From: an uncultured Spirochaetota bacterium
GTDB lineage: Bacteria; Spirochaetota; Spirochaetia; SZUA-6; Fen-1364
NCBI GenBank assembly: GCA_963781885.1
Contig: CAWAHW010000002.1
Coordinates: 1,184,001-1,248,000 of the forward strand
Reading direction: 5' to 3'
Length of the DNA: 64,000 nucleotides
Shown: positions 8,544-59,274 of the stretch, piece after piece
Layout: each line of letters opens with the position of its first letter
Numbering within the stretch: the stretch's first letter is position 1
Program-made: the position numbers and the translations under genes
The notes under the pieces: generated by a model
Database searches by the model: none
Told to the model about the DNA's origin: nothing
The model's input: the letters and a program-made list of their open reading frames with translations, nothing else

Positions 8544-8614
8544 CGCGACAAGCCCTCGGCGCCGCAGGCGCGGCGGAGGGCGGCATTTGCGGCCGCTCCT
8601 GGCGGCATTTGCGC

Positions 8615-8660
8615 TTGTCATTTCCACCCATATACTATACACTTGTATAGTATATGGGTG
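8615..8660 (+). promoter_or_regulatory. dnaE promoter overlapped by a perfect 16-bp inverted repeat (candidate operator)
   Basis: TTGTCA (8615-8620)-17-TACACT (8638-8643); CACCCATATACTATAC-ACTT-GTATAGTATATGGGTG (8625-8660). Confidence 0.8.
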
Positions 8661-11914: not shown

Positions 11915-11950
11915 CTGTGAAATATCGCTCTCCATGGTATCCTGTCGCCC

Positions 11951-12913
11951 ATGTCGATCTGGTTCGCGCTTGTCCTGATCGTGTGCTGTGCGATTCTCTG
12001 GGACGTGGGCATCGTTCTGCAGAAGCTTGCTGTTGACGAGATCCCGCAGATCAAGCTCAACCGGTCCCTGGTGTCGCTCCTGAAATCGCGGCGCTGGATG
12101 GGCGGTCTCATAGCCTCTGCGCTCGGGTGGGGATTCTTTGTTTTCGCCCTCACCTTCACTCCCGTGTCGGTGGCGCGGGCAATACAGGGCTCGGGCTTCG
12201 TCGTCCTTGCGGTCTTTTCGCTGCTCTTTTTGCGGCACAGGCTCACCGTGCGGGAATGGATCGGCGTCGTCCTTGTGACCGCGGGAATCGTTGCGCTGGG
12301 AATCGCGGATTCCACGCAATCCAGCGCCCGGATCGAGCTTTCTCTCGGGCGCCTTCTGCCGGCGCTCGCGGTGTGTCTGGTCATCTGCGCGGTCGCCCTC
12401 CTGCTTCCAAGGATCCGGAGGATCGGCGTGCCGCGCGTGATTGCGTTCTCCATTTTTGCCGGCACATTCCTGGGCCTCGGCGACGTCTCGACAAAAATAC
12501 TGACTGAGGTCCTGGGCCGGAGCGGTTTCGGTCTCGGGGCAGTGGGTGCCGCGGTTGCGCTTGTCATTTTCTATGCGTCCGGGTTCGTCGTGCTCTCCCG
12601 CGCGTACCAGCATGGTCGCGCCGTCCTGGTCACCGCGGTGTCGGACTTGTGCTCGCGCCTGGTCGCGATCCTGGTCGGCATCGCCGCCCTTGGGGAGGCG
12701 CTGGCAGGAGACCCGCGGCTGCGGCTGCTGGCGCTTCTGGGCTACGCGACGATCATCGTTGGCGCGATCTTTCTGTCGAGATTCTCCGGTTCGGAGCTTG
12801 CAGAGGGGCTGCACAAGACGCCAAGCATAGCCGCCGACGCGGGCTCAGAGGGCCTTCGCCATCCTGATGAAGGAAAACACGCCGAGGGATCCAAGGCCGA
12901 TGCGCACCGCTGA
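11951..12913 (+). CDS. DMT-superfamily membrane protein (NIPA/EamA-like)
   Basis: About 9 TM helices; LQK...RWMGG...PVSVA pattern. Confidence 0.75.
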   Translation: MSIWFALVLIVCCAILWDVGIVLQKLAVDEIPQIKLNRSLVSLLKSRRWMGGLIASALGWGFFVFALTFTPVSVARAIQGSGFVVLAVFSLLFLRHRLTVREWIGVVLVTAGIVALGIADSTQSSARIELSLGRLLPALAVCLVICAVALLLPRIRRIGVPRVIAFSIFAGTFLGLGDVSTKILTEVLGRSGFGLGAVGAAVALVIFYASGFVVLSRAYQHGRAVLVTAVSDLCSRLVAILVGIAALGEALAGDPRLRLLALLGYATIIVGAIFLSRFSGSELAEGLHKTPSIAADAGSEGLRHPDEGKHAEGSKADAHR

Positions 12914-13450
12914 AACGGGGTGGTAGCCGAAGCGGTCGTAGAACGCACGGGCGTGCTCGTTGTGCTCCTCGACGTCAAGCGTCATTTTGTGAGCGCCCGC
13001 GGCCGCGGCCCATTTTTCGCCGGCAAGGAGAAGCTCTTTCCCTGCTCCACGCCCGCGCATCTCTGGCACAATTGCAATGTGTGAAAGATAGAAATCGCCC
13101 GGCCCCAGATCGGCCATGGCCTTCCCCGCGCGGGCCAGATTTAGAAGGCGCGCCATGAATCCGAGCCCGTACCACTTCATAAGCAGTACCGCCGTGTGGA
13201 GCTGCGCCGCGCGCGTGGCGCGTGCGAAAGATCCGACAAACGAGCCGACGATGGCGCCAGGAAAGTTCTGATCAAGGATCACCAGGGTGTTCTCGTGCGA
13301 ATAGGGATTCGCCTTTGCAGTCTGGAGATGGGCAAGAAGAGCCCTTGCGTTGTCACCGAACAAAGCAGGCACCAGGCCGCAGTCCGACTGGAGAACGAGC
13401 TCTGCGACAGCTTCGCTTTCCGATGATTCGGGGCGACGGACAGTGAACAT
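12845..13450 (-). CDS. GNAT family N-acetyltransferase
   Basis: FYLSHIAIVPEMRGRGAGKELL and NEHARAFYDRFGY. ATG at 13450. Confidence 0.88.
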   Translation of the reverse strand: MFTVRRPESSESEAVAELVLQSDCGLVPALFGDNARALLAHLQTAKANPYSHENTLVILDQNFPGAIVGSFVGSFARATRAAQLHTAVLLMKWYGLGFMARLLNLARAGKAMADLGPGDFYLSHIAIVPEMRGRGAGKELLLAGEKWAAAAGAHKMTLDVEEHNEHARAFYDRFGYHPVSAVRIGLGSLGVFSFIRMAKAL

Positions 13451-16986: not shown

Positions 16987-17382
16987 TCAGGTCTGCAACG
17001 CGAGCCCCATCATGCCAATGTAGGCGAGATTCGCCTGCGTGACATCCATCCTGCCGTACTGGATGACCACATCGATGTCGCTCTGGAACCGAAGCGCGTA
17101 CTGCGTCCGACGGGGGATCTGGATGCCGCCGATCTCGGCGGGATGGTCCATCCTCAAGCAGGTGATCCGTCTGGCTGCGACGGTGAGAGGGACGCCGGTT
17201 TGCGGCTCCCTGTCCTGGAAATACACGTCCATAAGAACGTTGGCCGGCCGGTCGTGACAGTTGAGAATCATGATCGCCTCGTGTCCTTCATAGCCCGAGT
17301 CGAGCTCCGGGTTTTGAGTCGGCATCCAGCCGTCGGCGACAAACCATGTCTTCGCGCCGTTCCGTTGTTCAGCGGTCATCAC
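16987..17382 (-). CDS. Sensory rhodopsin transducer (ASRT) family protein
   Basis: KTWFVADGWMP, HEAIMILN, VYFQDREP, VAARR, VVIQYGRMD. Confidence 0.85.
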   Translation of the reverse strand: MMTAEQRNGAKTWFVADGWMPTQNPELDSGYEGHEAIMILNCHDRPANVLMDVYFQDREPQTGVPLTVAARRITCLRMDHPAEIGGIQIPRRTQYALRFQSDIDVVIQYGRMDVTQANLAYIGMMGLALQT

Positions 17383-43758: not shown

Positions 43759-44878
43759 TCACGAATGTGCCGATTCGGCGTCGAGGTACCTCTGCGCGAC
43801 TTCGCGGATCGACTCCGCGGTCGCCAGGAAAGCGTCCACGATGTCCGGATCGAAGTGACTTCCCGAGCTTTCCCGGATGATTGAGACGGCCATTTCGTGA
43901 GGGAACGCCGCCTTGTACACGCGTTTGCTCACCAGCGCATCGTAGACATCCACGACCGCCATGAGCCTTCCGGGAACGGCGATGGCCACTCCCGCCAGAC
44001 CCCGCGGGTATCCCATGCCGTCCCACCTCTCGTGATGCGACCAGGCGACTTCGCGCGCGAGGTGCAGGAATGAGGTCGGCGATTCAATGAGCTTCTCCGC
44101 CGCCATGATGGAGTTTCGACCGAGCGTGGTATGCGTTTTCATGATTTCGAACTCCTCCGCCGTCAGCTTCCCGGGCTTGAGGAGTATGCGGTCGGGAATC
44201 CCTACCTTGCCGATGCCATGGAGCGGGGCCGATTTGTAGAGGAGCTCGATGGTGTCGGGCGTGAGAAAGGACGAGAACCGTGGGTGGCCTTTCAGCCTGA
44301 GCGCGAGCATCTTCACGTAATGCTGGGTCCGGCGGATGTGATTGCCCGTTTCGTTGTCCCGTGTTTCCGCGAGCGACCCCATGGCCACCATTGTCACGTC
44401 CTGGATGGTGCTGATTTCCTGTGTCCTCCTCCCGACCTCCTGCTCGAGATACTCGCTCTTGTCACGCAGAAAGTCTCGCGCGCCCTTCAGTTGCAGGTGG
44501 GTCCGCACCCGCGCGGTCACGATAGCGGGACTGATCGGTTTCACAATGTAGTCGACTGCTCCGAGCTCGAGACCTTTCTGTTCGTCGGCGGCATCCGACT
44601 TTGCTGTAAGGAAGATGACCGGTATGTCGGTTGTGGTTGGATCGTCCCTCAGGCGCTGGCACACTTCGTACCCGTCCATTCCGGGCATCATGACGTCGAG
44701 GAGAATCAGGTCGGGAGGATGTGTCATGAGACGCGACCTCCAGGGCCTTCGCGCCGCCCGTGGCAACCTTCACCCGGTAGGTGGTGTTGAGAAGCGAGCT
44801 CATGAGCGCAAGGTTTTCGGGCGCGTCATCGACGATCAAGATGGTCTGCGTCCTGGCGTTTCTGGGCGTCTCTGACAT
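43759..44878 (-). CDS. REC plus HD-GYP response regulator (frameshift near 44735; HD motif reads HG)
   Basis: ILIVDD, LLDVMMP, ETGNHIRR, LHGIGK, HHERWDGMGYP. Confidence 0.85.
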
Positions 44879-44893
44879 GGTGACACCCTGCGT

Positions 44894-46430
44894 CTATACG
44901 ATCCCGTTGTCGAGTCGCTGCAAGGCGTCCCAGGCGGCGGAGAAATCGTATGCGATGAGCTTTTCTCGCAGCAATTCCACCTTGTTCTCCGCATACGACG
45001 AGGCAAGTCTTCCCGAAACGCTCTCGAGATAGTCGAGGGCGTCGCTGTCACTTTCCTTGATGAGTGTCGTGAGTCGCGCGATGATGATTGTCCGTTCCGC
45101 GGCGTCCAGCTGTGAGCCTGCCCGCTGCACGGGGGCCCGGGACGGAAGGGTTTCCAGAATGCCTGCCGTGGCCTTCTGGAGAGCCGCCGCAAGACGGCGC
45201 AGATTCTCCTCAACGGCGGTCGGTGTGTCTTTTGTCTGGATCCGCCGCTCCAGTTCGCCGGAGAGCTCCTGCACCTCGACCACGCCAAGATTGCCCGCTA
45301 TTCCCTTGACGGTGTGTGCGAGATGCTCAGCCGTCGGACGGTCCCCTTTTTCGAGGGCTTCCGCAATCCTGGCGGGGGTCTCATGGTGCCCCTCTGCAAA
45401 TCGGCGCAAAAGAACCGCATAGAGCGAGGCATTTCCCGCCACTCGCTTCAATCCTGCGACCACGTCGACTCCCACGATCGGGGCAAGGGAAAACTTCTCC
45501 CCAACGTGAGGAGTCTCTTCCGGAATCTGCCCTTTCAGTGTCGGGCCGCGGTAGTACTTGCGGATAGTCTGGACCATGGCGTCGGGGTCGATAGGCTTGC
45601 TTATGTGATCATTCATGCCCGCTTCCAGTGCTTTCTCCCGCTCTTCGCTCAGGGCATGAGCGGTCATCGCAATGACGGGAATGCTCGTTCCCCACTCGGC
45701 GGCCCTGATGCGCCGGGTGGCTTCGTACCCGTCCATTTCTGGCATCTGGACATCCATCAGGACCAGGTCAATACGTGCGGCGTGATCCATCAGCCTCGCA
45801 ATGGACTCCTTTCCGTTGTTTGCGATTTCCACCCCCGCGCCAGCTGCCTGGAGCAGCTCCACGGCGATCTCCTGGTTGATCTCGTTGTCCTCGACCAGCA
45901 GGATGCGCGCGCCGCTGAGCATCCCGGCCTGGTCGTTGCCGGGCATCGATTCACGAAGCGCGGGCCGAATATCGGGGGCAAACACCTTCAGAATGGCATC
46001 CAGAAGGCTGGAGGGGGTCAGTGGCTTCAACAGGAAGTCGGCCGCACCCGCGTTCAGCGCGTTCTGGCGTTCCCCTTCTGCTCCCTCCGACGCGCTGAGC
46101 ATGATGGCGACGGGCGGCCGCGCGGCCTTCACGCCGGCGAGGATTCGCCGCGTGGCTTCAATACCGTCTATGCCCGGCATCCTCCAGTCCATGAGCATGA
46201 GGCCGAATGGATCACTCTCTTCAGCGTTCCTGACCGCCTCTATCGCGTCGCCTCCAGAGGCGACCGTCTTCACCCGGAAATGAAGAGAAAGAAGGGTGCG
46301 CTCGAGGATTTTTCGCGCCTCCTCGTTGTCATCGGCCACGAGGACCCGCATCCCATTCAGATCCACAGGGACTGCAGGGGGTATGTCGAGACTCTGGCGG
46401 GACCGAAGCTGCCCCACTTCATCCAGGGCC
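44894..46430 (-). pseudogene. 5'-truncated hybrid sensor kinase remnant (REC-REC-HPt)
   Basis: Two receiver domains (LMDWRMP, LMDVQMP) and HPt AHTVKGIAGNLG. No HisKA or HATPase; the frame ends at the island edge. Confidence 0.75.
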
Positions 46431-46641
46431 CTTTCAAATCAACCCAGTTCAGGTCGTGCGTTCTTCAGCTGTCTCGACGCACCCAGACTACGCATCTCGT
46501 CCTGATTAATATATTGCAGAGTGATAGGTATATCAAAGAAAAAAACGATTTCTATTCCGATCAGGAAGCCTTCCAGCTGGATTCAGATCTGCATCGGCAG
46601 TTGCGAATCGACCTCACCCAAATTCTAGCTGAATAGAGCAC

Positions 46642-46955
46642 GATGCCTCACGGAAAAAACTAGCCCAGAATATCCGGGCTTCAAGACGATTTCTGTCGCC
46701 TTGGCACGGAGGTGGGCTGAGATGGAGGTATCGATGACCGACAGGCGCACCATCATCAGGCGTAGCTTTCACCGCTACCAAGAGGCTGATCGGAAGACCA
46801 AAACACGAATCTTGAACCAGGTCATGGAGCAGACGATGTACCGCAGTCGCGCCTACCTGGCTTTGATCCTGCGCCAGTGGGGCAGGACCAACTGGCATTC
46901 GGGTCCGCGCGGACCCCTGCACAAATGGGCGAAGGGGACGTCCGCATCCCCGTAG
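46642..46955 (+). mobile_element. IS remnant: left end and N-terminus of an integrase-core (ISNCY-like) transposase
   Basis: MTDRRTIIRRSFHRYQEADRKTKTRILNQV...YRSRAY resembles the RY..A.K..K..ILDE N-terminus of this family; possible end GATGCCTCACGG. Confidence 0.6.
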
Positions 46956-47068
46956 GTTCTGCTAAGGACTGTAAGCCCTCTTGCAGTGCATCATGCGGTC
47001 CGCCGGTCTCTCTGAAATAGCTCGCCGTGGACGGGCGAAAGCTGCTCGCAGGCCGTTGGATTATAATA

Positions 47069-47100
47069 TTGACAGTTGCACTGCCACTGTATATTATGCT
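47069..47100 (+). promoter_or_regulatory. merR-vwa promoter with a spacer dyad
   Basis: TTGACA (47069-47074); dyad ACAGTTGCA-C-TGCCACTGT (47072-47090); -10 TATTAT (17 bp) or TATGCT (20 bp). Confidence 0.65.
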
Positions 47101-47103
47101 GTC

Positions 47104-47652
47104 GTGAGTCAAAGTGAGCGCGTCATGAACATGCAGGCGCTGAGCGACCGGTCCGGAACGCCTGTTCGCACAATACGGTTCTACATCAGTCAGCGGCTGC
47201 TGGCGGGGCCGCAAGGTCGGGGTACTTCCAGCTCCTATGCGGAGGATCACCTGCGGCGCCTTCTTCTGATCAAACAGTTGACCCGCCGTCACGTGCCTTT
47301 GACAGAGATCCGTGACCATCTGGATGGGGTCTCCCCGGAGGCACTCGCGCAGGTCCTCGAGTTGGCGCAGAAGCAAAACGCCGCGGAGGCAAAGGTGCAG
47401 AAGAACTCGCCCCGGCAATATCTGTCAGAGCTATTGCGGGACGTTCATCTCCATCGAATGGGAAGCGAGCTCGGGAAGCCGTATGTGCCACAGCGGGAGG
47501 ACCGCGACGTATGGCGGAGGGTGAAGGTCGCCTCGGGTATAGAGCTCCACTACACTCTTGAGTCTGAGGAGAGGAACGCTGAGCTCGTGGCTGAGTTGAT
47601 CGATAGTACGCGACAGGTTGCGCAGAGAGCAAGCACGAGGAGGGGAACGTGA
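47104..47652 (+). CDS. MerR-type HTH regulator
   Basis: LSDRSGTPVRTIRFYISQRLL.GP, YAEDHLRRLLLIK, C-terminal WRRVKVASGIELH. Confidence 0.88.
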   Translation: MSQSERVMNMQALSDRSGTPVRTIRFYISQRLLAGPQGRGTSSSYAEDHLRRLLLIKQLTRRHVPLTEIRDHLDGVSPEALAQVLELAQKQNAAEAKVQKNSPRQYLSELLRDVHLHRMGSELGKPYVPQREDRDVWRRVKVASGIELHYTLESEERNAELVAELIDSTRQVAQRASTRRGT

Positions 47653-49187
47653 TGGAAAATGGACATCCGGCAGAGGGAACGAACGGCCAGGAGGGCATGT
47701 TTCTTGGAGTTGGCGTAGAGAGACGACTGCTCAGGACCGTGAAGAGCGTGAGCCATATCGACCTGACAGTTCGTGCGCCGGTTGCGCATGGAGAAACCGG
47801 GCGGCCGCCGCTTGCTCTTTCCCTGGTGATCGACAGATCGGGCTCAATGCAGGGGAACAAGCTCATCACTGCCAAGCGCGCCGCACTCGCCGTCTTGGAC
47901 CGGCTGAGTGGTGAGGATATCGCGGCCGTCGTGGTCTTCGACAACATCATCGATCTGGTCCTTCCCGAAGGGCCGATAAATGATGAGAGAAAGGCACAGG
48001 CACGGGCCGCCCTCTCTCTCATAGAGGCGAGGTCCCAAACCGCGCTCCACGAGGGCGGGCTGACGGGATGTCGGTCCATTGCCGCGGATGTCATACAGGG
48101 CAGGAAACCCGAAAGGCTTTCCCGGTGCTTTCTGCTCACGGACGGGCTTGCAAACGTGGGCATGACCGACCCTGAGCAGATCGCGGCCCAGACGGCGGAT
48201 GTGCGGCAAAACACTGGGATATGCACAAGCACTTTCGGGATTGGGGATGACTATGATGAAAGGCTCCTTGCCCCTATGGCGGTTGCAGGCAGTGGCCAAT
48301 TCCACCACTTGCGGGATGAAGCGGACATTGCCGCCACCTTCGCGGGCGAACTCTCTGAGATGTTTGAGGTGACCGCGCGAAGCGTGAGCATTGAGATCCA
48401 GGCGGACCCCTCGGTGCATCCTGAGCTGGTCAGCCTGTACTGGGGGGCGAACGGCGCCGGCCCTGGCGTCCTCCGCGTCGATCTGGGTGACATGATCGGC
48501 GGTGAGGAACGGCACGTGGTGGCGCGGCTCGTCTTCGGCTGGGTTCCTGTTGGCGCGCGCATTCCTATGCGTGCCCGCGCGATCTGGCGCGATGGTCAGT
48601 ATCTCAGGGACGGGCCATGGCAGGAGCTCACTTTTGTGGGAGCCGATGACGCAGCCTGCTCCAGGGAAGCGCGGGACATGGCCGTGATGCACTGGGTGGG
48701 GTGTCATCACGCTGACAAGGCCAAGGCAGAGGCCCTGGCGCTCCACCGGCAAGGAGATACGGAGGAGGCCATCCACGTCCTGGAGGGCGTGATGCGGAAG
48801 ATGGGTGAATATGCCGCCGCGGACCCTGACCTGGTACGGGCCTTGAAAGAGCTTGGCGATCTCCGCGAGAAGCTCCTTATGGACCGCGTTTCTTCATCGA
48901 TGGCCAAAGAAATGAGCTATACCTCACACCTGAACTCACGAATGCAGCGGGACATGCGCCACGTCCTGACCGCTGGAAACGGTTCCTTTCGCCTCGTTAC
49001 ATCGCAAGAGTGTGGTCTTTGGGACGCCCTCCACTATGGGACTTATTCAGCCGGTCGCAGCCACCGCCGGAGTTACACTACGCCCGGCGCCAGCCTGCTT
49101 CTCAGTAGTCTCGCTAGGTTTTCTGACGCCAGGAAACGCCTGGCCTATGCTCCGGTGGAGGCCGACCATGGAAAAATACCAGCCTAA
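47649..49187 (+). CDS. VWA (MIDAS) domain protein with Ig-like and helical C-terminal regions
   Basis: LVIDRSGSM, LLTDGLAN, STFGIGDDYDE. The last ~70 codons look like read-through; the true stop may be near 48970. Confidence 0.88.
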   Translation: MMENGHPAEGTNGQEGMFLGVGVERRLLRTVKSVSHIDLTVRAPVAHGETGRPPLALSLVIDRSGSMQGNKLITAKRAALAVLDRLSGEDIAAVVVFDNIIDLVLPEGPINDERKAQARAALSLIEARSQTALHEGGLTGCRSIAADVIQGRKPERLSRCFLLTDGLANVGMTDPEQIAAQTADVRQNTGICTSTFGIGDDYDERLLAPMAVAGSGQFHHLRDEADIAATFAGELSEMFEVTARSVSIEIQADPSVHPELVSLYWGANGAGPGVLRVDLGDMIGGEERHVVARLVFGWVPVGARIPMRARAIWRDGQYLRDGPWQELTFVGADDAACSREARDMAVMHWVGCHHADKAKAEALALHRQGDTEEAIHVLEGVMRKMGEYAAADPDLVRALKELGDLREKLLMDRVSSSMAKEMSYTSHLNSRMQRDMRHVLTAGNGSFRLVTSQECGLWDALHYGTYSAGRSHRRSYTTPGASLLLSSLARFSDARKRLAYAPVEADHGKIPA

Positions 49188-51483
49188 ACCGATTGACACT
49201 TCACACATTACGCTCCCAAAAGGCATTTTGAAGCTCAAGGAAAAGCTCGCGGAGAACGTGCACGATGTCTGGGCTCAGCAACGGATCAAGGACGGGTGGA
49301 CGTATGGGAAAAGGCGTAGCGACAGGACCAAGCGTCACCCCTGCCTTGTGCCGTACAGGGAGCTTCCGGTTTCAGAGAAAAGGTATGACCGCAGCACCAT
49401 GGAGGAGACCATCAAATGCATACTTGCTCTCGGGTATACCCTGGATTCTGCAAAACATGATGCTGAAGAGGACGATCCTGCCTTGCGTGAGCTCGAGTTG
49501 CTGCTCAAGAGCCCCAAGCCCGATTTCCTGGAGATGTTTCGGCTGTGGCAAAACAGGAATCCACTCGCCAGGCCCGAGACTCCGCGTCTGCACGAATTGT
49601 TCGCGAATCGCCTGATCAAGATGGAGGAATCTATCGTTGCATATGACGTCATCGCGCACGGTTTATCAATCTGGCCGAGCGATAAGAGCATGCTGCATAA
49701 AAAGGGCCTGGTGCTCGCGCGAACCGGCGCCACGGAAGAGGCCCTCTCCATAGCATCCGGCCTTGAACGGGTGACGGGGAAAAAGGATCCGCTCCATGAT
49801 GAAATCCTGGGGCTTCTGGGACGCTGCTACAAGGACCTTTGGGAGTATGAGCATGATTCAACGAGAAAGCGGGAACACCTCGAGCGCGCCTTCGAATTTT
49901 ATCAACGCGCGTTTCAGAGCCTGCGGGGAACCTATTATACGGGCATAAACGCGGCGCACATGGCGCTGCTCAAGGGGGACAGGGAAGAGGCGCTCAGGTT
50001 GGCGGAGATGGTGATAAGCTGCTGCGCATCCGAGCGGCGAAAAGGCGAGGATTCCTACTGGCTGTACGCAACCATGGGCCACGCTCTTCTGATAAAGGCG
50101 TTTCAGGAGCCGCGATTCATGGATGAGGCGGAGCACTGGCTCAGGAGCGCAGCGACCGCGGGCGCGGGCAACTACGGCGATCTCAATGCAACCAAGCGAA
50201 GCATCAGGCAGATCCGTGAAAATATCACGCTGCCACGGGAATTCGAGGAACGCGTGGAGAGTCTGCTCGCCCTATTCCAGTGCCCTTGCGTGGCCGTCTT
50301 CTCCGGGCACATGATCGACCAGCCGGGAAGGCCGGAACCTCGCTTCCCCCAGGGCATTGCTGCAAGGGTCAAGCGTGAGATCAAGCAAAAGCTCATGGAT
50401 CTGAATGTTCGCATTGGATTCGCCTCCGGCGCATGCGGCGCGGACATCCTGTTCCATGAGACACTTCTCGAACTCGGTGGCGAAACGCACGTGGTGCTGC
50501 CATTCAATCGCGATGAGTTCATGAAAACGACCGTTGGGGTCGGGGAGAACGCGGATTTTTGGAAGGGAAAGCTCAGGGCGATCCTGAAGAAGGCCAAGAG
50601 CGTCATCACCGTGTCAAGGCAGCAGACTGATTTCGGGTCGGTTTATTACGATTACGCGAATATCGTGCTGAACGGGCTCTCCCGGAACCAGGCCATGCAC
50701 CTGGACACGGACCTGGTGGCGCTCACGGTCTGGAACGGGAAGGCGGGGGATGGGCCGGGCGGTACCGCAAGCATGTATGGCTATTGGAAGGATGTGATGG
50801 GCCTTCCCAATATCCAGGTCATCAATCCACGGCAATTCTTGCCGGAGGGAGAGGTTGGGAACCTTACAGGCGCGGACATATCACCGGATGATATGACTAT
50901 CGAGCCGGCGAACGCCCAATCGCCGGTTGCATCACCGGTCGCGGCTGAGAGCATCAAGGCCATGCTGTTCGCAGATGTGGTGAAATTCAGTAGCCTCAAG
51001 GCGGGCCAGATCCCTGCTTTTGTCAAGAGTTTTATGGGCGCCATCGCTGGATTGATCGAAAAGACAGAATACAAGCCGGAAACCAGAAACACGTGGGGCG
51101 ACGGTCTCTATTTCGTTTTCGACAAAGTTGAGCACGCGGGTCTGTTCGCGCTCGATTTGTGCGATCTGGTCTTGGGCACGAACTGGATGGAGAAGGGCTT
51201 GAACGATAATACGAGCATCCGAATTGCGCTGCACGCAGGCCCTGTTTTCTGCTGCGTGGATCCTATTCTCGGGGTGAAAAACTACACGGGCTATCATGTG
51301 AATACAGCCGCGCGTCTCGAGCCCATAACGCCCCCCGGCAATGTCTACGCCACCCAGCAATTTGCCGCGCTCGCGTCATTCCACGGGATTACGGGTTTTG
51401 CGTGCGACTATGTGGGTCAAATCCCCTTTCCCAAGGGCTTTGGCGCTTACCCGATCTACCATGTGAGGAGAGCACAGGGGTGA
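49168..51483 (+). CDS. RyR domain, TPR (TPR-S/TRAF-binding-like), SLOG-like, class III nucleotide cyclase fusion
   Basis: RyR: LAENVHDVWAQQR..GWTYG...HPCLVPYRELP.SEKRYD. TPR: LLGRCYKD, YYTGINAA. SLOG: FSGHMID, SGACGADILF, HVVLPF. Cyclase: LFADVVKFS, TWGDG, RIALHAGPV, VNTAARLE. SD GGAGG. Confidence 0.85.
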   Translation: MEKYQPKPIDTSHITLPKGILKLKEKLAENVHDVWAQQRIKDGWTYGKRRSDRTKRHPCLVPYRELPVSEKRYDRSTMEETIKCILALGYTLDSAKHDAEEDDPALRELELLLKSPKPDFLEMFRLWQNRNPLARPETPRLHELFANRLIKMEESIVAYDVIAHGLSIWPSDKSMLHKKGLVLARTGATEEALSIASGLERVTGKKDPLHDEILGLLGRCYKDLWEYEHDSTRKREHLERAFEFYQRAFQSLRGTYYTGINAAHMALLKGDREEALRLAEMVISCCASERRKGEDSYWLYATMGHALLIKAFQEPRFMDEAEHWLRSAATAGAGNYGDLNATKRSIRQIRENITLPREFEERVESLLALFQCPCVAVFSGHMIDQPGRPEPRFPQGIAARVKREIKQKLMDLNVRIGFASGACGADILFHETLLELGGETHVVLPFNRDEFMKTTVGVGENADFWKGKLRAILKKAKSVITVSRQQTDFGSVYYDYANIVLNGLSRNQAMHLDTDLVALTVWNGKAGDGPGGTASMYGYWKDVMGLPNIQVINPRQFLPEGEVGNLTGADISPDDMTIEPANAQSPVASPVAAESIKAMLFADVVKFSSLKAGQIPAFVKSFMGAIAGLIEKTEYKPETRNTWGDGLYFVFDKVEHAGLFALDLCDLVLGTNWMEKGLNDNTSIRIALHAGPVFCCVDPILGVKNYTGYHVNTAARLEPITPPGNVYATQQFAALASFHGITGFACDYVGQIPFPKGFGAYPIYHVRRAQG

Positions 51484-51622
51484 TCAGGAATTGCCGACGA
51501 TAGACAGCGAAAGTGCATTTCTGTACGCTCAGCCTGCAAAATAAACCATTTCCCAACACAGCACTGCAGCCGAGTGCCTGGAACTCAAGCCGTTTTTTTT
51601 TGCTTGGCTGCCGGAGATCTGC

Positions 51623-53037
51623 ATGAAAAGGGTGTTCATTTCATACCGATACAAGGATCATCCTCGGTTTGAACTTGTCAGAGAGATCTCGGCACGCCTC
51701 CGCTTCTTCTCGATAGAGGTGATCCTGGATCAACGCAGTTTGCTTTTTGGAGAGGACATCAAGGCTTTTATGGAGGAGATGATACAGACAGCAGACGCGA
51801 TCGTGATCCTTCTAAGTGAAGACTATAATCAGGCTCTCCGCCAGGAGGTCGGCCCGGGAGCCGGCGTCCGCTTTGAAGTAAGTCTCGCTCTGCAAGAACG
51901 AAAGCGAAGGCCTGCTTTTCGAAATTCTCCCGATCCTTCTCGACTCAAGTCTTCCTGTCCCCCCATTTGACCGTTTGAAGTGCGCTAGACCGAACGATAT
52001 CGATCAAATCGTCACAGAACTGGGGTTGGTTGAGCATCTGAGTGAGTCGCGTGTTCTGGCCGACCGCTACCGTCTGGATCAATTCGTTGAAACTCGTGGA
52101 CTGGCTCGCGTGTTCAAGTCCCATGATCTGGTTTTGGATACCCCTGTGGAAGTCTATATGGTTCCCGCGACAGGGGAGACTGGCCTTCAGGGCGAGAGGT
52201 TCCGGATTTTCGAAAGGGTCCTAAAAGGACGATCTCAGGCATTTAGTCCATTTCTCCTAAACATTCGCGATTCTTACGTAGATTCTGATGGTGCGTATTA
52301 TCTCGTCACCGAAGAGTTTGCCGGTACCGACCTGAGCGTGCCTCTCAACAGAGGGTTTACGACACACCCTTTTGGCGCACTCTGCATCGCCTACCAGGTT
52401 GCCCTTGGTCTCTACGAGCTTCACCAGAGTGGAGTTCTCCATGCTGGCCTGGCTCCGCGCGCCATCCGGCACAACAAAGAAAGAACTCTCTGCAAGATCG
52501 TTGACTTTGAATTCGCAAGACCCGCTATCGGCGTTCGTCAGCTGCCACTGGACGGATACCCTATCATTTCGCCCCCGGAGCGTTTTGCTGGCAAACCGCC
52601 CTCCATTTGTCAGGATGTCTACCAACTCGCGAATCTTGTATTTTGGCTTATTTGTGGTTTTCCGGTAGTGTCGCGCTCTGTCTATAGGCTCATGCCTTCA
52701 GCCTTAACTCTTTCCACTGTGGTTTGTGAGGATTCTGGCCTCCAAGAATCTCATTGCATCTACGCTATCCGATTTTTCCTCTCGGAAAATAGCAACGGCG
52801 GATCGGAATCCAGACTTAACCGAGGCTATCGCCAGATCGCAATCGACCGACTTCATAAGAAATGTATTAAGCCCGTTTCTTGCTTCCTGTCTTCATCCTG
52901 ATCCTCGATTGAGGCCGAGAAATATCGGTGAAGTGCTGGGCTTTCTATCGACACTGGAGATTCCGCCAGCGGGCAGACTGCTCGATCGTGGGGGCGCCGA
53001 AGTGTCGGGTGCTCTTTTTCCAGAATATGAAACGTAG
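51623..53037 (+). CDS. TIR domain fused to a Ser/Thr-kinase-fold pseudokinase (two frameshifts, near 51922 and 52715)
   Basis: VFISY, LLSEDY, GVRFE. Removing one A gives ILPILLD, which runs into DRYRL, LVTEE, LHAGLAPRAI, IVDFE, PPE, DVYQL and CLHPDPRLRP. Confidence 0.75.
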
Positions 53038-53393: not shown

Positions 53394-53653
53394 TGGGGTC
53401 AGGTCAATTCCCCACCCTCAGGGCTGGTAGGGTCATGTAGATTCCCCGGGTTTCGCGGTTTCGCTCCGTCAGGGTCATTACAATTCCCCACCCCGACGAT
53501 CCCCGGTAGGGTGTCTCCAGAGGGGGACATCAAGGATGGGCTATCGAAGGATGAAGAAGCGCGACCTGTGGGAGACTACCGCCGATGGCAGGCCGGGCGG
53601 TCGCTCTCGCATATTGCCGCTAAAGAGCGGCGCGATCGACGATCAACTCTGAA
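53394..53653 (+). mobile_element. IS21-family left-end remnant and istA N-terminus
   Basis: Starts with TG; three copies of GGGTCA-N5/6-ATTCCCC (near 53396, 53430, 53472); then MGYRRMKKRDLWE/YRRWQAGRSLSHIA.KERRDR HTH. Confidence 0.65.
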
Positions 53654-53858
53654 GGTGAAAAACTGCACGGGCTATCACGTGAATATGGCCGCGCGGCTTG
53701 AGAGCATCACGCCCCCGGGCAGCGTCTACGCCACCCAGCAATTCGCCGCTCTCGCGTCATTCCAGGGCAACGCAAGCTTTGCATGCGACTATGTGGGCCA
53801 GATCCCCTTTCCTGAAGGATTTGGCTCATACCCGATCTACCTCGTGAGGAGGGAGTAG
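53654..53858 (+). pseudogene. Remnant of a second cyclase paralogue (C-terminal ~67 codons)
   Basis: Gap-free 198-nt match of 53654-53851 to 51273-51470, with many third-position differences. Confidence 0.9.
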
Positions 53859-53893: not shown

Positions 53894-54586
53894 TCACTCC
53901 TGCCGATCGACCGAAGACGGGGATATTCCCAGGCGGGAAAGCGACCGCGCGGCTTCATCTCGAACTCTCTCGTCCCAATCCTTCAAGCATTCCTGGAGAG
54001 CTCCCACCGCCCGAGAATCCTCGATCTGGCCCAATGAATGAATAACGGCAATCCGTGTATGGACGTCGTACATTCCATTCCCGTGCGTCTTCAAGCTCTT
54101 TACGAGAGGCTCGACCGCATGCGGTTCGCGCAATAGTCCCAATGCGCGCGCGGCTTCGGTGCGGCGCCTGACGCCCAAGTCCCACACATGCTGGTCGGAA
54201 ATCCCCCGGCTCTCCTCCCGAGCCCACGACCTGTTGAACTCATCGTCATCGCCCTCATAATGAATCCTTCTTCGTGATGAGGTCATGCCTTCAGGATGCA
54301 GCTCGGTGATCCACAGCTCGAGCAATCGCGCCTTCAGGTCGGCATCCCGAACGCGTGCCGCCATCGTAACCAGGGCATCCACGGCGGCATGTGCTTCCGT
54401 GTCATCCTCAGCTCCGCGAGCGACAAGCAAGGGCTCCACGGCGCTGTCATCCCCGACCTCGCCCAACGCGGCTGCCGCCTTTGTCACGCTCATACGATCC
54501 TTGGAAGAGCGAAGGACTTTGATCAAGTTTTTCACGTCCGAGCGGGCCTTCATGCGATCGACGTTTGGCGGACCGAATATGCTCAT
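53894..54586 (-). CDS. HEAT/PBS-lyase repeat protein
   Basis: FGPPNVDRMKARSDVKNLIKVL; repeats AA.ALG..GD..AVEPL. SD GGGGAGG. Confidence 0.85.
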   Translation of the reverse strand: MSIFGPPNVDRMKARSDVKNLIKVLRSSKDRMSVTKAAAALGEVGDDSAVEPLLVARGAEDDTEAHAAVDALVTMAARVRDADLKARLLELWITELHPEGMTSSRRRIHYEGDDDEFNRSWAREESRGISDQHVWDLGVRRRTEAARALGLLREPHAVEPLVKSLKTHGNGMYDVHTRIAVIHSLGQIEDSRAVGALQECLKDWDERVRDEAARSLSRLGISPSSVDRQE

Positions 54587-55038: not shown

Positions 55039-58000
55039 ATGACCAAAGCCAATGACCGCTACCATTCGCTACGTGGGCTTAGTCTCCCTCACGATGCCTT
55101 TGAGAAGCTGCCGAACATCGAGCGCTACCTCGACGCGGCAGTCGAGAAAGCGTGCGGCGAAATCGTTGCGAGCGGGCCGTTGCCTTGCATCGATGCGCGC
55201 TATGCATTTGCGTTCAACAAGATGGCGCGTGACAGCTATGAGGCGGGGCGAATTGGTGAGGCGGTGGGGCACTATACCCATGGGATCAAGCTGCTCGCCC
55301 TGCTGCTGAAGTCACCCCATGTGCTTGGCGCGTCCCGGTCGACGATCCCAGAGTTTCTCTCCGGCGTCTATTCCGACCGCGCGAGTGCCTGCTCTGATGT
55401 GAATGACTTCACAAACGCGCTCGCCGACTACGCTTGCGCGCTGCGTTTCGACAATCCACAACGCTGGGTCATACTCCTAAATCGGGCAGGAACATTTGAG
55501 CGAATCGGCGAGTTCCAGAGTGCGGAAAGGGATCTGCTGGAGGCGCAACGAATCGCCCCGAAGGCTGGTACGCCGCATGCAAACACGCATGGCACGGAAG
55601 CCCTCGACCGGATCGAGGAGTCCCTTGGACGCGTTCGTCTCGCGGCAGTCGGTCGCGGGGGGGGGTCGGAGGAGCCGCCGTCGCCTCCAACGCCAGAGGC
55701 AAGTGAGAGCGGGACCTCGCTCTACGGGGTTGGCTCGCCCAAGGTCGGCCTTGACGCCGCTCGGGCCGAGATCGCAGAGGGGGAGCCGCGCGTCATCCGC
55801 GTCTTCATTTCGTCAACCTTTCAGGACATGCAGGCCGATCGCGACGAACTGGTGAAGCGGACGTTTCCTGCGCTGCGCAAGCTCTGTGAATCACGTGGCG
55901 TTACCTGGGGAGAGGTCGATCTGCGCTGGGGCGTGACCGACGAACAACGCGCGGAGGGGAAAGTGCTGCCCCTCTGCCTCGAAGAGATCCGGCGCTGCCG
56001 GCCTTACTTCATTGGGCTGCTGGGGGAGCGATACGGTTGGGTGCCCGACGAGATTCCCAGGGAGCTGACCACGCGGGAAGAATGGCTGACGGAGCACCGC
56101 GGCGTTTCGGTTACCGAGCTGGAGATCCTGCATGGCGTGCTGAATGATCCCCAAATGGCCGACCGCGCCCTGTTCTACTTCCGTGACCCTGCTTACAGCG
56201 AGGGGAGGCCGGATGGCGAGCGAGCGCCGTATCTCGAGGCTCCGAACGCGGACGAGACTGCGCGCTTTGGACGAGAAGAGGCTGCGCGTAGGGCTGAGGA
56301 GCGCAGGCAGAAGCTGAAAGCCTTGAAAGGGCGCATTCGGGATAGCGGCCTTCCTCTTCGCGAGAACTACAGAGATCCACGCGAGCTTGGCGAGCTCATC
56401 TTGTCCGATATGACCTCGATTATCGATCGGCTCTTCCCGGAAGGCTCCGCGCTGGACATCCTCGATCGGGAGGCACGTGATCACGCTTTCTTCGCGCGCA
56501 GCCGCGCAAATGTCTACATTCGGCGACCTGCGTACTTCGAGCGTCTCGATCGTCATGTGGGGAGCGACGATCCGCCCCTGGTCTTGATCGGCGAATCGGG
56601 CTCTGGGAAGTCCGCGCTTGTCGCAAATTGGTCGTTGGAATATAGAAAGAAGCACCCGCGCGATTTCCTTTTGCTTCACTTCATTGGTGCCACACCCGAC
56701 AGCGCGCATTGGGCACCTATGTTGCTTCGGATTATGGGCGAATTCCATCGCCAGCTGGGCATTGTTGGCGAAGTCGGCGAGAATCCGCAGACACTGCGCG
56801 CGTCGTTTGCCCGATGGCTGAATATCGCCGCGGAGAAAGCGCGTATTACACTGATCCTCGATGGGCTGAACCAACTCGAGGACACCGATCAGGCTCTTGA
56901 CTTGAGCTGGCTGCCAGAAACAATCCCGAATAACATTCGGCTGATCCTAACCACTCAGCCGGGCCACACCTTGGATGTGCTGCGCGCGCGCGAATGGCCC
57001 ACCGCACTGGTGGAGCCTTGCACGGAAATGGAACGCGAGAAACTGATCGAACAGTATTTGCTGCAGTATGGAAAGGCGCTCAGCCCAAAGCAGATGAAGA
57101 CGATCGTTTCCGCGACGCAGGCCGGGAACCCTCTTTACACAAGAGCGTTGTTGGAGGAACTGCGAATGTTTGGGGTCCATGAGCAACTCGACCAGTGTTT
57201 CCAAAGCTATCTGCAAGCCGCGACGATCGATCAGCTCTTCGAGAGGATCCTTGCCCGTTGGGAGCACGACTATGAGGACCACCAAGCGCCCCAGCTTGTG
57301 GGCAGGGCAATGACGCTGCTATGGGCCGCGCGAAGAGGTTTGTCGGAAGCAGAGCTGTTGGAACTGCTCGGGACAGAGAAAGCGCCACTACCGCACGCCC
57401 TCTGGTCGCCGCTGCACCGGGCGCTTGACTCGCATATAGTCGACCGGATGGGTCAACTGGCTTTCTCGCATGAATACATGCGTCAGGCAGTACACCAGCG
57501 CTATCTGGCAAATGAGGAAGCAGCACGGGACGCGCATCGCAAGCTCGCAGATTACTTTGCGGGACGAGGTCTTACTCAGCGAAAGATCGAGGAAGAGCCG
57601 TGGCAAATGGATCGTGCTGGCGATTTCAAGTCTCTCGCGCGCCTGCTGTCTGATCCCTCGTTTTTCATTGCCGCGTGGCAGTCGAACCAGTATGAACTGA
57701 AGGCTTACTGGACACATATCGAGAAGCAGTCGGACGTGAGGTTAGCCACAGCATATCACGCCGTACTGGAGTCGCCTGAGAAGGTGGATCATGAGGCAGT
57801 ATGGAACATCGCGATGTTGCTCAACGACACCGGATCTCTTCCAGAAGCACTGCAGCTTCGACGTTACCTGGTCCGCTACTACCGGACGTCAGACGATCGG
57901 AAAAGGCTGGCGGGCGCGCTGGGTAACGAGGCCGCTTCGCTCATGGCTGTCGGGGACATGGCCGGCGCCATGCCCCTGGTTCGAGAACAAGAGCAGCTTG

Positions 58001-59274
58001 CCCGCGATCTGGACGACAAATATGAGCTTGCGAGATCGCTTGGTAATCAAGCGATCATCCAGCGGCACCTCGGCAATCTTGAGGAAGCGAGCAGATTACG
58101 TAAAGAGTGCGCGCTCGTGGCGAAGGAAATGGGCAACGACCTGCTGATGGCCGAGTCGCTTGCGGATCAGGCGTTAATCCTTGCCAAGACGGGCAACCTG
58201 CCCGAGGCGCTGGAAGTAGTCGAAGTGGCGGAGCGTGTTTTTTATGGATTGGGCGAAAAGCGGTCGTTGGCCATCGCTCTGCTCAATCACGCTTCGATGT
58301 TGAAACAGCAGGGCAATCTCCGAGGTGCCCTTGCACTCCACGAGAAGGCTGAGTGCTTGCATCGCGAGATGGGGGACAGGGAATTGGTCGCGAAATCGCG
58401 CGAGCTAGAGGGCGAAATCTTCGTCGCGCTGAAAGATCTTCGCGCAGCGTTGCAGTGTTTCCAGGAGCAAGAACGCCTGGCACGCGAACTGAGCAACATG
58501 CGAATATTGGCCTCATCCGTCGGGCGCCAAGGGCAAGTGTCCGCCCTGCAAGGCGAGCTCGATCAAGCCTTGCGACAGTTCCAAGAGTCCGAGCGATTAA
58601 GCCGTGAGTCGAGTGACCTGGTTCCAGTCGCCTGGTCGCTGATTCAGCAGGCGATTGTGCTGGCAGCCGAGAACGATCTCGATGGCGCGCTGAATCGGGG
58701 CAAGGAAGCCGAGAGCTTGTGTCGCAAGCTTGGGAACAAGCCACTACTGGCAGAGGCGCTCGACCGTCAGTCTCGAGCCTATGCTGCGCGCGGTGAAGGA
58801 AAGGTATGCCAACCGCTGCTAAAGGAACTAGAGCGCCTGTACCGCGAGCTTGGCGACAAGCCGCATCTGCAATCAACACTTGGCTCCCTGGCTGCCCTTC
58901 ATTACTCGGACGGCGACTTCGCTGCCACAATAACGCTGTTGAAAGAACAGGAAGCCCTCGCGCGTGAGCTCAATGATCTGGCGAGCGTGCAGCTTGCGAT
59001 TGGACACCGTGCGGAGATCTTGTTCCGAACCAACAACGTTCCGGCCGCGCTTGACGCGCTGGAAGAGAACGTTCGGCTGTGCCGTGAATCGGGCGATAAG
59101 GCCGGGCTGGTAAGAGTGCTCGGCAACCAGGCTGAGCTCCTGCACCGCAGCGGACAGTATCAACACGCACTGAGACTGGTCGATGAGGCGGCCGCTGTCG
59201 CTCAAGAAGCGCGTGATCTTCAATCGGCCTTGCGGATTGAAGACTTGCGCCATCGGATCCAGACACGTCGGTAG
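55039..59274 (+). CDS. NLR-like STAND NTPase: TPR, DUF4062, NACHT/AAA, TPR array (NPHP3/TEP1-like)
   Basis: IRVFISSTFQDM..DR, VDLRWGV, CLEEI..CRPYFIGLLGERYG, SVTELEI; Walker A GESGSGKS; Walker B LILDGLNQLE; GNPLY; many ~40-aa TPRs. Confidence 0.9.
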   Translation: MTKANDRYHSLRGLSLPHDAFEKLPNIERYLDAAVEKACGEIVASGPLPCIDARYAFAFNKMARDSYEAGRIGEAVGHYTHGIKLLALLLKSPHVLGASRSTIPEFLSGVYSDRASACSDVNDFTNALADYACALRFDNPQRWVILLNRAGTFERIGEFQSAERDLLEAQRIAPKAGTPHANTHGTEALDRIEESLGRVRLAAVGRGGGSEEPPSPPTPEASESGTSLYGVGSPKVGLDAARAEIAEGEPRVIRVFISSTFQDMQADRDELVKRTFPALRKLCESRGVTWGEVDLRWGVTDEQRAEGKVLPLCLEEIRRCRPYFIGLLGERYGWVPDEIPRELTTREEWLTEHRGVSVTELEILHGVLNDPQMADRALFYFRDPAYSEGRPDGERAPYLEAPNADETARFGREEAARRAEERRQKLKALKGRIRDSGLPLRENYRDPRELGELILSDMTSIIDRLFPEGSALDILDREARDHAFFARSRANVYIRRPAYFERLDRHVGSDDPPLVLIGESGSGKSALVANWSLEYRKKHPRDFLLLHFIGATPDSAHWAPMLLRIMGEFHRQLGIVGEVGENPQTLRASFARWLNIAAEKARITLILDGLNQLEDTDQALDLSWLPETIPNNIRLILTTQPGHTLDVLRAREWPTALVEPCTEMEREKLIEQYLLQYGKALSPKQMKTIVSATQAGNPLYTRALLEELRMFGVHEQLDQCFQSYLQAATIDQLFERILARWEHDYEDHQAPQLVGRAMTLLWAARRGLSEAELLELLGTEKAPLPHALWSPLHRALDSHIVDRMGQLAFSHEYMRQAVHQRYLANEEAARDAHRKLADYFAGRGLTQRKIEEEPWQMDRAGDFKSLARLLSDPSFFIAAWQSNQYELKAYWTHIEKQSDVRLATAYHAVLESPEKVDHEAVWNIAMLLNDTGSLPEALQLRRYLVRYYRTSDDRKRLAGALGNEAASLMAVGDMAGAMPLVREQEQLARDLDDKYELARSLGNQAIIQRHLGNLEEASRLRKECALVAKEMGNDLLMAESLADQALILAKTGNLPEALEVVEVAERVFYGLGEKRSLAIALLNHASMLKQQGNLRGALALHEKAECLHREMGDRELVAKSRELEGEIFVALKDLRAALQCFQEQERLARELSNMRILASSVGRQGQVSALQGELDQALRQFQESERLSRESSDLVPVAWSLIQQAIVLAAENDLDGALNRGKEAESLCRKLGNKPLLAEALDRQSRAYAARGEGKVCQPLLKELERLYRELGDKPHLQSTLGSLAALHYSDGDFAATITLLKEQEALARELNDLASVQLAIGHRAEILFRTNNVPAALDALEENVRLCRESGDKAGLVRVLGNQAELLHRSGQYQHALRLVDEAAAVAQEARDLQSALRIEDLRHRIQTRR

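Follow-up and report, generated by a model that had tools for sequence, protein, structure and literature searches.

The window analysed here, 64,000 nucleotides from an uncultured Spirochaetota bacterium (GenBank assembly GCA_963781885.1, contig CAWAHW010000002.1, positions 1,184,001 to 1,248,000, read on the forward strand), encodes at 49168..51483 (+) a 771-residue protein that joins, in this order, a RyR repeat, a TPR-S/ASK-like TPR region, a SLOG-like Rossmann domain and a class III cyclase domain. The gene is a single uninterrupted open reading frame (ORF) running from an ATG at 49168 to a stop codon at 51481-51483, and a Shine-Dalgarno-like GGAGG, read from the sequence, lies 6 nt 5' of this ATG at 49157-49161 (+). 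We place the start at 49168 because the N-termini of relatives fall within a few residues of Met1, and on the same ground reject an alternative GTG start at 49012.

The domain limits come from Pfam matches and from an AlphaFold2 model of the full 771 residues (predicted local distance difference test score, pLDDT, 90.6; predicted template-modelling score, pTM, 0.83), with all features on the (+) strand. The RyR repeat, a single one of the R12 type (PF02026, E-value 3.5e-36), spans residues 4-93 (49177..49446). It is followed by an all-helical, TPR-like region at residues of about 104-369 (49477..50274), defined by Pfam and by the helices of the model (H104-H369), with matches to TPR-S (PF20308, residues 162-265, E 3.2e-19) and to MAP3K_TRAF_bd, an ASK1-type TPR (PF13281, residues 199-303, E 4.3e-10). 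The SLOG-like Rossmann domain, delimited by the model and by Foldseek, occupies residues 374-557 (50287..50838), and the class III cyclase homology domain, recognised by Pfam, by a profile search of the PDB and by Foldseek, occupies residues 594-768 (50947..51471); its match to Guanylate_cyc (PF00211, residues 598-753) has an E-value of 5.5e-8 and scores 33.1 bits, with a curated cut-off of 21.9. An earlier interpretation made from the DNA letters and translations, which we call the sequence-only reading, had described the same four-domain architecture; its nucleotide ranges agree with the Pfam and AlphaFold2 limits, and the motifs that it quoted are all present (F601-A-D603, G644-D645-G646, N712-T-A-A-R716, R640-N641-T-W-G-D-G and K704-N705-Y-T-G).

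Domains and conserved residues

By sequence profile and predicted structure, the C-terminal domain is a class III nucleotidyl cyclase homology domain. A profile built from 58 family domains finds 3et6 (E 2.8e-9) and 3mr7 (E 3.4e-9) in the PDB, with 37 sequences at E<=0.1, and the top 50 PDB structures listed by Foldseek for the full-length model are all class III cyclases, with TM-scores on the target of up to 0.84 (Ma1120, Rv1900c). Among 119 full-length family members, the set on which our residue counts are based, four residues never vary (119/119): D603 and D645, the metal-binding Asp pair, R685, the phosphate-binding Arg, and R716, the transition-state Arg. The transition-state Asn is N712 in the window protein; 97 members have Ser at this position, 14 have Asn and 6 have Thr. 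The sequence-only reading had stated that the metal Asp pair and the Asn/Arg pair are kept and that the base-specifying positions hold neither a Lys/Asp nor a Glu/Cys pair. Both statements hold: D603, D645, N712 and R716 are in place, and in the alignment to RhGC (5oyh) N641 falls where Lys or Glu would stand and N705 where Asp or Cys would, a placement that recurs with the beta subunit of sGC (3et6) through the 58-sequence profile. The canonical pairs, Lys/Asp for ATP and Glu/Cys for GTP, are replaced in the window protein by Asn641/Asn705. N641 is kept in 113 of the 119 members, position 705 varies (Asn 48, Thr 31, Ser 25, Asp 12), and two further residues near the pocket are specific to the family, W643 (119/119) and H710 (117/119). 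Judged by these residues, the domain looks catalytically equipped, with a non-canonical base pocket.

The proposal that the odd pocket makes an unusual product finds no support in our results: position 705 varies across the family, the closest structures are those of ordinary adenylyl and guanylyl cyclases (AC and GC), and a PADLOC search at E<=0.01, which covered the Pycsar cyclase models, gave no match. Rv1900c and Rv0386, mycobacterial class III enzymes whose pairs are likewise non-canonical, are still adenylyl cyclases. An unusual cyclic nucleotide is possible and unsupported, and a non-canonical pocket alone predicts no product. Asn does read uracil in PycTIR and in some CD-NTases, according to the available sections of one study (PMC11224242), and this precedent may, by analogy, be taken as a hint for N641/N705 rather than as evidence.

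The middle domain gave no match to Pfam at E<=10, nothing in NCBIfam or PADLOC, and nothing among PDB sequences, either by phmmer or by a 58-sequence profile. Its AlphaFold2 model, computed on 58 sequences, is a confident Rossmann domain at residues 374-557 (pLDDT 89.5, pTM 0.86), which bears out the limits that the sequence-only reading had wished to see checked by structure prediction. In a Foldseek search of the PDB this model matched YpsA (2nx2) first, with an E-value of 6.1e-7 and TM-scores of 0.58/0.70, followed by ShosA, several DprA structures, the molybdenum cofactor (Moco) carrier protein MCP and LOG proteins; a feature search of the ESM Atlas likewise placed YpsA clusters nearest among those with names (score 0.82), a result that we rate as a lead only. 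Three residues are nearly invariant, G424 (119/119), D426 (118/119) and E431 (118/119). They resemble the signature of the YpsA clade, GxD/E (G53/E55 in YpsA) with an acidic residue in the second helix (PMC6459960, in the sections available), a correspondence that we draw from likeness and not from an alignment. Taken together, the predicted structure supports the earlier description of this domain as SLOG-like, and suggests a SLOG fold of a subfamily outside the Pfam models. A G-P-G-G-T stretch lies at residues 529-533 with no acidic residue after it; judged against what we take to be the LOG motif, this disfavours a LOG-type hydrolase and amounts only to a lean towards a binding domain. A BFVD fold search with the full model returned cyclase, TPR and DprA-like matches and no RyR match, and was uninformative.

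The RyR repeat matches the repeats of RyR1-3 (E 2.9e-66 for RyR2) and the bacterial RyR proteins 3nrt (E 4.7e-30), 4n05 and 6uag. Four residues mark a candidate pocket: H32, W35, H57 and D74 are kept in 118, 112, 107 and 99 of the 119 family sequences, respectively, and their spacing (3, 25, 42) equals that of H75/W78/H100/D117 in RyDEP and of H129/W132/H154/D171 in RyR Tad, an equivalence that rests on spacing and on the papers' own statements, not on alignment with the RyDEP or Tad sequences. Phage RyR-domain proteins have been reported, in the available text of two preprints, to bind or cleave the TIR products 2'/3'cADPR, isomers of cyclic ADP-ribose (cADPR) (PMC13232231; 10.64898/2026.06.04.730250). 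RyDEP is a glycosidase whose catalytic dyad is H75/D117, with W78 stacked against the adenine and H100 at the phosphates; other phage homologues act as sponges, and six of eight phage RyR homologues bind the signal without cleaving it (PMC13232231). For RyR Tad, the gp68 protein of a Pectobacterium phage, the dissociation constant (KD) for 1''-3' gcADPR is 43 nM, and binding is about 100-fold weaker in the mutants H129/W132, H154/K147 and K170/D171 (10.64898/2026.06.04.730250). The searchable text of these preprints makes no mention of cellular RyR fusions to a cyclase or a SLOG domain. A nucleotide-handling role for the repeat, which the sequence-only reading had offered as conjecture, now has an experimental precedent, because phage RyR proteins bind or cleave 2'/3'cADPR; by analogy, and with the four residues kept, the repeat of the 771-residue protein is a candidate pocket for an ADP-ribose signal.

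Modelled as a homodimer, the RyR repeat reaches an interface score (ipSAE) of 0.70, compared with 0.00 for the best of three controls, and 20 of 30 solved homodimers attain the mark set for this score, as does 1 of 23 monomers. Separate runs share at least 91% of their contacts, with a partner pLDDT of at least 83, and the modelled interface is formed by the first and last helices, matching the description of RyDEP. Homodimer formation by the single RyR repeats is supported by these models. Because complexes of similar RyR repeats have already been solved, the score may mirror that likeness, and it is possibly recall rather than an independent test.

Apart from these results, two relatives (L017 and L018, about 5600-13350) carry a degenerate RyR repeat in which the Trp, the second His and the Asp are lost; in both, a ThsB_TIR-like gene stands at +2 and a gene for a NUDIX protein at -2.

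The family and its gene neighbourhoods

The architecture is widespread rather than unique, and its members are uncharacterised. A word-indexed search found 834 relatives at E<=1e-3, and the best 118 full-length relatives share 40-46% identity with the window protein over 98-100% of its length and have the same Pfam set; their names are generic only ('TRAFs-binding domain-containing protein', 'DUF4071 domain-containing protein', 'RyR domain-containing protein', 'class 3 adenylate cyclase'). A scan of species-representative genomes gave at least 585 confirmed stretches (585 of the 600 matched stretches listed) and returned 80 loci, from Acidobacteriota, Cyanobacteriota, Verrucomicrobiota, Gemmatimonadota, Planctomycetota and Bipolaricaulota, and members are present in cultured cyanobacteria such as Nostoc, Calothrix and Tolypothrix. 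A profile of the SLOG domain matches 4901 representative clusters at E<=1e-3 and 1054 at E<=1e-30, and in nearly all of the 150 best clusters the domain is followed by about 200 residues, the cyclase. The core of the family is TPR-S, SLOG and cyclase. Among 13 representative relatives scanned for fusions, this core is preceded by nSTAND1 in one (P0184, nSTAND1-TPR-S-SLOG-cyclase), by a cyclase and NB-ARC in another (P0180, cyclase-NB-ARC-TPR-S-SLOG-cyclase) and by GAF in place of RyR in a third (P0239, GAF-TPR-S-SLOG-cyclase), and a fourth has a SLOG-cyclase pair with a weak C-terminal TIR match (P0128, E 6e-4). In a quick tree of the family, the source of all tree results given here, the window protein has a long branch.

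Gene context could be sampled at 65 of the 80 loci, with 15 dropped for short contigs or a match at the contig end, and at 57 of these 65 the match lies within a single ORF; neighbouring ORFs were chosen greedily by length, which makes the gene calls approximate. By Pfam, a TIR domain is encoded in an immediate neighbour at 21 of the 57 loci and within two genes on either side at 25. A custom TIR hidden Markov model (HMM), trained on the TIRs of such neighbours, gives the same picture by distance, with 23 of 113 ORFs matching at one gene, 6 of 109 at two, 4 of 103 at three, 1 of 94 at four and 0 of 230 at five or more; adjacent ORFs (23/113) compared with those at least three genes away (5/427) give a Fisher p of about 1e-12, a value to be read with the rows being related and not independent. 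The TIR partners have at least six architectures across five phyla (TIR-DUF4062, ThsB_TIR-like, TIR-Sel1, kinase-TIR, multi-TIR-CHASE2 and multi-TIR-WD40), and the Glu of the catalytic helix is kept in all 16 aligned TIRs. nSTAND1 NTPases lie within two genes at 15 of the 57 loci, and at 10 loci nSTAND1, TIR-DUF4062 and cyclase form a trio. On the family tree TIR adjacency is scattered: well-supported branches force at least 14 changes, and adjacency clusters no more than expected from label shuffling (a value as low in 207 of 500 shuffles). An adjacent TIR is found at 19 of 38 RyR-bearing and 4 of 19 RyR-less loci (p 0.047), a weak comparison in which L008 is counted as RyR-bearing unchecked and the rows are related. 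Other neighbours are heterogeneous and include IspD, methyltransferases and transporters. At one locus from Bipolaricaulia (L020, 3012-12250), the relative lies between an nSTAND1-WD40 gene and an LSDAT_prok(SLOG)-SLATT gene, beyond which comes a TIR gene, so that two different SLOG proteins surround one TIR.

The window's own gene keeps the company of its relatives, TIR, kinase and STAND, in partly decayed form. The guanine-cytosine content around it is 0.545-0.60 (about 50-56 kb), compared with 0.60-0.67 upstream. Downstream on the same strand lies a TIR-like ORF (51623-51970; TIR_2 E 5.1e-12, PADLOC bSEFIR E 2.2e-16, and PADLOC ThsB1 at E 5.4e-4 only), and five bases after it, in a different frame, a kinase-like ORF (51975-52901 (+); Pkinase E 2e-8). 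The kinase frame is open back to 51882, and its upstream part reads like the remainder of a TIR domain; 51623..52901 is probably a single TIR-kinase gene, broken near 51885-51915 by a frameshift or else by an error in sequencing. A blastx comparison of this region with the neighbours of the relatives gave two weak kinase matches only, so the window TIR is not close kin of the TIRs at other loci. Further on, a 68-residue copy of the cyclase C-terminus (residues 701-768) at 53649..53852 (+), with 82% identity by tblastn and 83% DNA identity to 51273-51470 over 198 nt, sits inside a 115-codon ORF with an unrelated N-terminus and looks like the scar of a duplication or recombination. A HEAT-repeat gene (53894-54586 (-)) and, by Pfam, a gene for a 1411-residue DUF4062-NACHT-TPR STAND NTPase, NPHP3-like (55039..59274 (+)), fall in the same lower-GC stretch, which may be a small conflict-system island. 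No domain that binds cyclic mononucleotides (cNMP_binding in Pfam) was found among the window neighbours.

Upstream, a MerR-like gene (46981-47652 (+), with a weak PADLOC mad1 match at E 1.1e-6) overlaps end to start with a gene for a 512-residue vWA protein (47649-49187 (+), from ORF and Pfam), whose end overlaps the start of the 771-residue gene by 20 nt; because of these overlaps the three genes are likely to be co-transcribed. We rejected the MerR/vWA pair as a conserved system partner. A promoter and terminator scan of 46500-53000 gave counts not above shuffles (3 against 2.8 and 6 against 5.9), and one promoter-like site (11/12) at 47069-47097, 5' of the probable MerR start, carries no weight. 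Just upstream of the island, at 43762-46417 (-), a response regulator with an HD-GYP-type HD domain stands beside a double-receiver Hpt protein, an unrelated pairing of second messenger and phosphorelay. The remainder of the window is ordinary chromosome (CarAB, transporters), in which we noted an Anabaena-sensory-rhodopsin-transducer (ASRT) family gene beside a sugar ABC transporter (16990-17382 (-)) and a DnaE-type polymerase with PHP and OB domains (8654-11911 (+)).

Possible signalling roles

The functional assignments for this gene are all inferred. The reading that we favour, and to which we give about an even chance, is that the 771-residue protein is a cyclase gated by TIR-made ADP-ribose (ADPR) signals, a Thoeris-like relay with cyclic mononucleotide (cNMP) output, in which a dimeric class III cyclase would be controlled by the RyR repeat, the TPR-S array and the YpsA-like SLOG domain. 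We place the protein at the receiving end of TIR signalling because relatives of its SLOG and RyR domains bind cADPR-type signals and the TPR of ThsI is presumed to perceive them: as set out in the available parts of a Thoeris survey, the SLOG domain of ThsA binds 3'cADPR, and the authors presume that the TPR of ThsI, from type VIII Thoeris, perceives cADPR, Aravind's group having predicted a ThsI-type TPR in TIR signalling (10.64898/2025.12.03.692087). In a first step, a neighbouring TIR protein, often paired with or driven by a STAND NTPase, would turn NAD+ into a cyclic or linear ADPR signal. The RyR dimer, the SLOG or TPR-S module, or both, would then bind this signal, and the His/Asp dyad of the RyR repeat might hydrolyse it, instead or additionally, as a built-in off-switch. 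Ligand binding would alter the geometry of the C-terminal cyclase dimer, which would make a 3',5'-cyclic mononucleotide for receptors encoded elsewhere.

A nucleotide-gated cyclase had already been proposed in the sequence-only reading, and the idea gains from the TIR adjacency at 21 of 57 loci and from its fall with distance (23/113 against 5/427 ORFs); we infer the gating itself, together with the identity of the ligand, the direction of signalling, the activity and product of the cyclase and a role in phage defence. Of that earlier interpretation as a whole, the architecture, the SLOG fold (as predicted), the catalytic residues and the odd base positions stand, and the unusual product is unsupported.

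Several observations weigh against a TIR-gated cyclase. No NCBIfam or PADLOC model matches the 771-residue protein. Since sequence searches with the middle domain came back empty, its assignment to SLOG rests on predicted fold and not on sequence: none of 58 aligned members matches a SLOG Pfam family at E<=5, PF06908 included, and ThsA is absent from the listed Foldseek matches of the domain. The equivalence of the RyR residues to those of the phage proteins is one of spacing, and the repeat itself is missing from 19 of the 57 relatives (37 align across it, and L008 is unclassified) and is therefore not essential to the core. In the cyclase domain, the Ser at position 712 in 97 of the 119 members could mean low or altered activity across most of the family. 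At 28 of the 57 loci there is no TIR within four genes, adjacent TIRs are rarer in the cyanobacterial clade (3 of 16 rows), and cNMP-binding neighbours occur at only 2 of the 57 loci (L039 and L076), which leaves the output of the cyclase without an evident receiver. In the window itself, the TIR neighbour is apparently frameshifted, and the MerR/vWA pair recurs beside none of the 57 relatives.

A reading in terms of ordinary physiology draws on the loci without TIR neighbours, about half of the sample. The protein would then be an adenylyl cyclase with no role in conflict, NAD+/ADPR-type metabolites or proteins that bind its TPR region would tune its activity, and the TIR adjacency would arise from shared variable islands. 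Such a role would suit the heterogeneity of the remaining neighbours (IspD, methyltransferases, transporters), the replacement of RyR by GAF in some relatives (P0239), as in many housekeeping cyclases, and the ordinary AC and GC enzymes that are the closest structures; the YpsA family also has housekeeping members, as noted in available sections of PMC6459960. Shared islands sit poorly, however, with how steeply TIR frequency drops, from 20% in adjacent genes to 0/230 at five genes or more, and some relatives are fused directly to STAND NTPases and the residues of the RyR pocket are conserved, so we regard a purely metabolic role as rather unlikely.

The same adjacency fits equally well an order in which signalling runs the other way, as in Pycsar: the multidomain protein would be the upstream sensor, its TPR-S and SLOG domains sensing an infection cue, and its cyclic nucleotide would activate the neighbouring TIR as an NAD+-depleting effector. 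A class III-type cyclase and a TIR effector are indeed paired in Pycsar (PMC11224242, available sections), and the Thoeris survey warns, in the text available, that TIR may be the effector in unverified systems (10.64898/2025.12.03.692087). Yet no adjacent TIR protein has a Pfam cNMP-binding domain, TIRs that carry WD40, Sel1, CHASE2 or kinase modules or stand beside STAND NTPases have the look of the sensing side, the 771-residue protein matches no PADLOC model, Pycsar cyclase models included, and relatives of RyR and SLOG bind TIR products, as the TPR of ThsI is presumed to do; we think this order unlikely. Least probable by our estimate is that the protein is a signal sink with a degenerate cyclase, in which the RyR repeat (through its His32/Asp74 dyad), the SLOG domain or both would damp TIR signalling in its own cell by sequestering or hydrolysing ADPR signals, and the cyclase-like domain would serve for no more than dimerisation or nucleotide binding: the RyDEP glycosidase uses an equivalent dyad and other homologues are sponges (in the available text of PMC13232231), neither base-specifying residue is canonical, 97 of 119 members have Ser for the transition-state Asn, and catalytically inactive cNMP cyclase domains have been noted in conflict systems (Kaur et al. 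2020, PMC7159879, available sections), but an invariant metal Asp pair, R685 and R716 (119/119) and a kept Asn712 are hardly the pattern of a dead domain, and SLOG and cyclase stay joined as one unit in almost every one of the 150 best representative clusters.

We accordingly rank reversed order, metabolic role and degenerate cyclase all below a TIR-gated cyclase. A more elaborate version of that favoured reading, which we put forward tentatively and think doubtful, is a receptor-converter in which RyR dimer, SLOG and TPR-S together read a TIR-made cyclic ADPR isomer and the answer is a cyclic mononucleotide, perhaps a non-canonical one from the Asn/Asn pocket. If this were true, the protein would form a two-tier second-messenger relay joining Thoeris-type with Pycsar- or cAMP-type signalling. 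The ancestral cellular job of the RyR repeat would then be the sensing or switching off of cADPR-type signals, a job that phages would later have copied for anti-defence and that animal ryanodine receptors may still echo.

Relation to known systems

We found no paper that joins TPR-S, SLOG and cyclase, though earlier papers by Burroughs and colleagues may already list the architecture or TIR-cyclase pairs, and none that joins Thoeris, adenylate cyclase, SLOG, TIR and TPR. Papers on RyR domains together with cyclases, judged from titles and the openings of abstracts, concern eukaryotic channels or unrelated topics, and in the available text of the Thoeris survey 'cyclase' denotes an ADP-ribosyl cyclase or a CBASS reference only (10.64898/2025.12.03.692087). 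The legend of Figure 1A in PMC6459960 defines 'A/G_cyclase' among YpsA-family architectures, and a YpsA-cyclase architecture has apparently been drawn before. What is new here is the TIR adjacency of the family, the conservation of the RyR pocket and the window's apparently frameshifted TIR neighbour. We regard the proteins as an uncharacterised, widespread family whose TIR linkage and RyR pocket suggest a variant of TIR/Thoeris-type signalling and not a new category.

In the TIR (Thoeris) systems known so far, the last component is an effector that kills the cell or arrests it. If the present proteins are TIR-linked receptors with another diffusible messenger as output, they would add a signal-conversion layer to bacterial immune signalling, and class III cyclases would gain an input of a kind new to them. 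The family also offers a cellular context for the RyR repeat, whose only microbial roles shown in the available text of the mid-2026 preprints are in phage proteins that bind or cleave cADPR isomers. With 834 relatives, 4901 clusters matched by the SLOG profile and members in cultured cyanobacteria, it is large and easy to test.

One near parallel is type I Thoeris, made up of the TIR protein ThsB and the SIR2-SLOG protein ThsA, in which a TIR gene likewise adjoins one for a SLOG-domain protein and the SLOG domain of ThsA binds the TIR product 3'cADPR to switch on its fused enzyme (10.64898/2025.12.03.692087, available text). Here the fused enzyme is a class III cyclase, not a SIR2 NADase, a RyR repeat and TPR-S are added, the predicted SLOG fold is nearest to YpsA, and there is no PADLOC match to ThsA. 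ThsI, the type VIII Thoeris effector, combines a CMP hydrolase with a TPR and so differs in output domain from the cyclase; its TPR, presumed in the text available to perceive canonical cADPR, is set beside TPR-S by description and not by sequence comparison. RyDEP and RyR Tad (PF02026) share with our protein single dimerising RyR repeats, the dimer here being modelled, and the same His/Trp/His/Asp spacing. Both phage proteins are small and act against defence by destroying or sponging the signals of the host, whereas here the repeat is fused to an enzyme in a chromosomal bacterial protein and would be a receptor or a built-in off-switch.

Pycsar PycC, as described in available sections of PMC11224242, has a class III-type fold, two metal Asp residues, non-canonical base residues and a defence context with TIR. 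Its specificity residues are Y50/D94/R97, F100/R142/Q144 and F60/K104/F109, not Asn/Asn; it has no RyR, TPR-S or SLOG domain, and the TIR partner in Pycsar has a cNMP-binding domain. We rejected membership of Pycsar because the 771-residue protein has no PADLOC match at E<=0.01, Pycsar cyclase models included. YpsA of Bacillus subtilis (2nx2), the founder of its SLOG clade, is the best structural match to the middle domain, which has a look-alike GxD/E and acidic residue and no profile match to PF06908; YpsA itself is a stand-alone cell-division regulator. Canonical class III AC and GC enzymes (CyaB 3r5g, Rv1900c 1ybt, RhGC 5oyh, sGC 3et6) share with the cyclase domain its fold, metal Asp residues, Arg/Asn pair and phosphate Arg. 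The family differs from them in having Asn for Lys/Glu, Asn, Thr, Ser or Asp for Asp/Cys, and the unusual W643 and H710, and its regulatory modules are new for the enzyme class.

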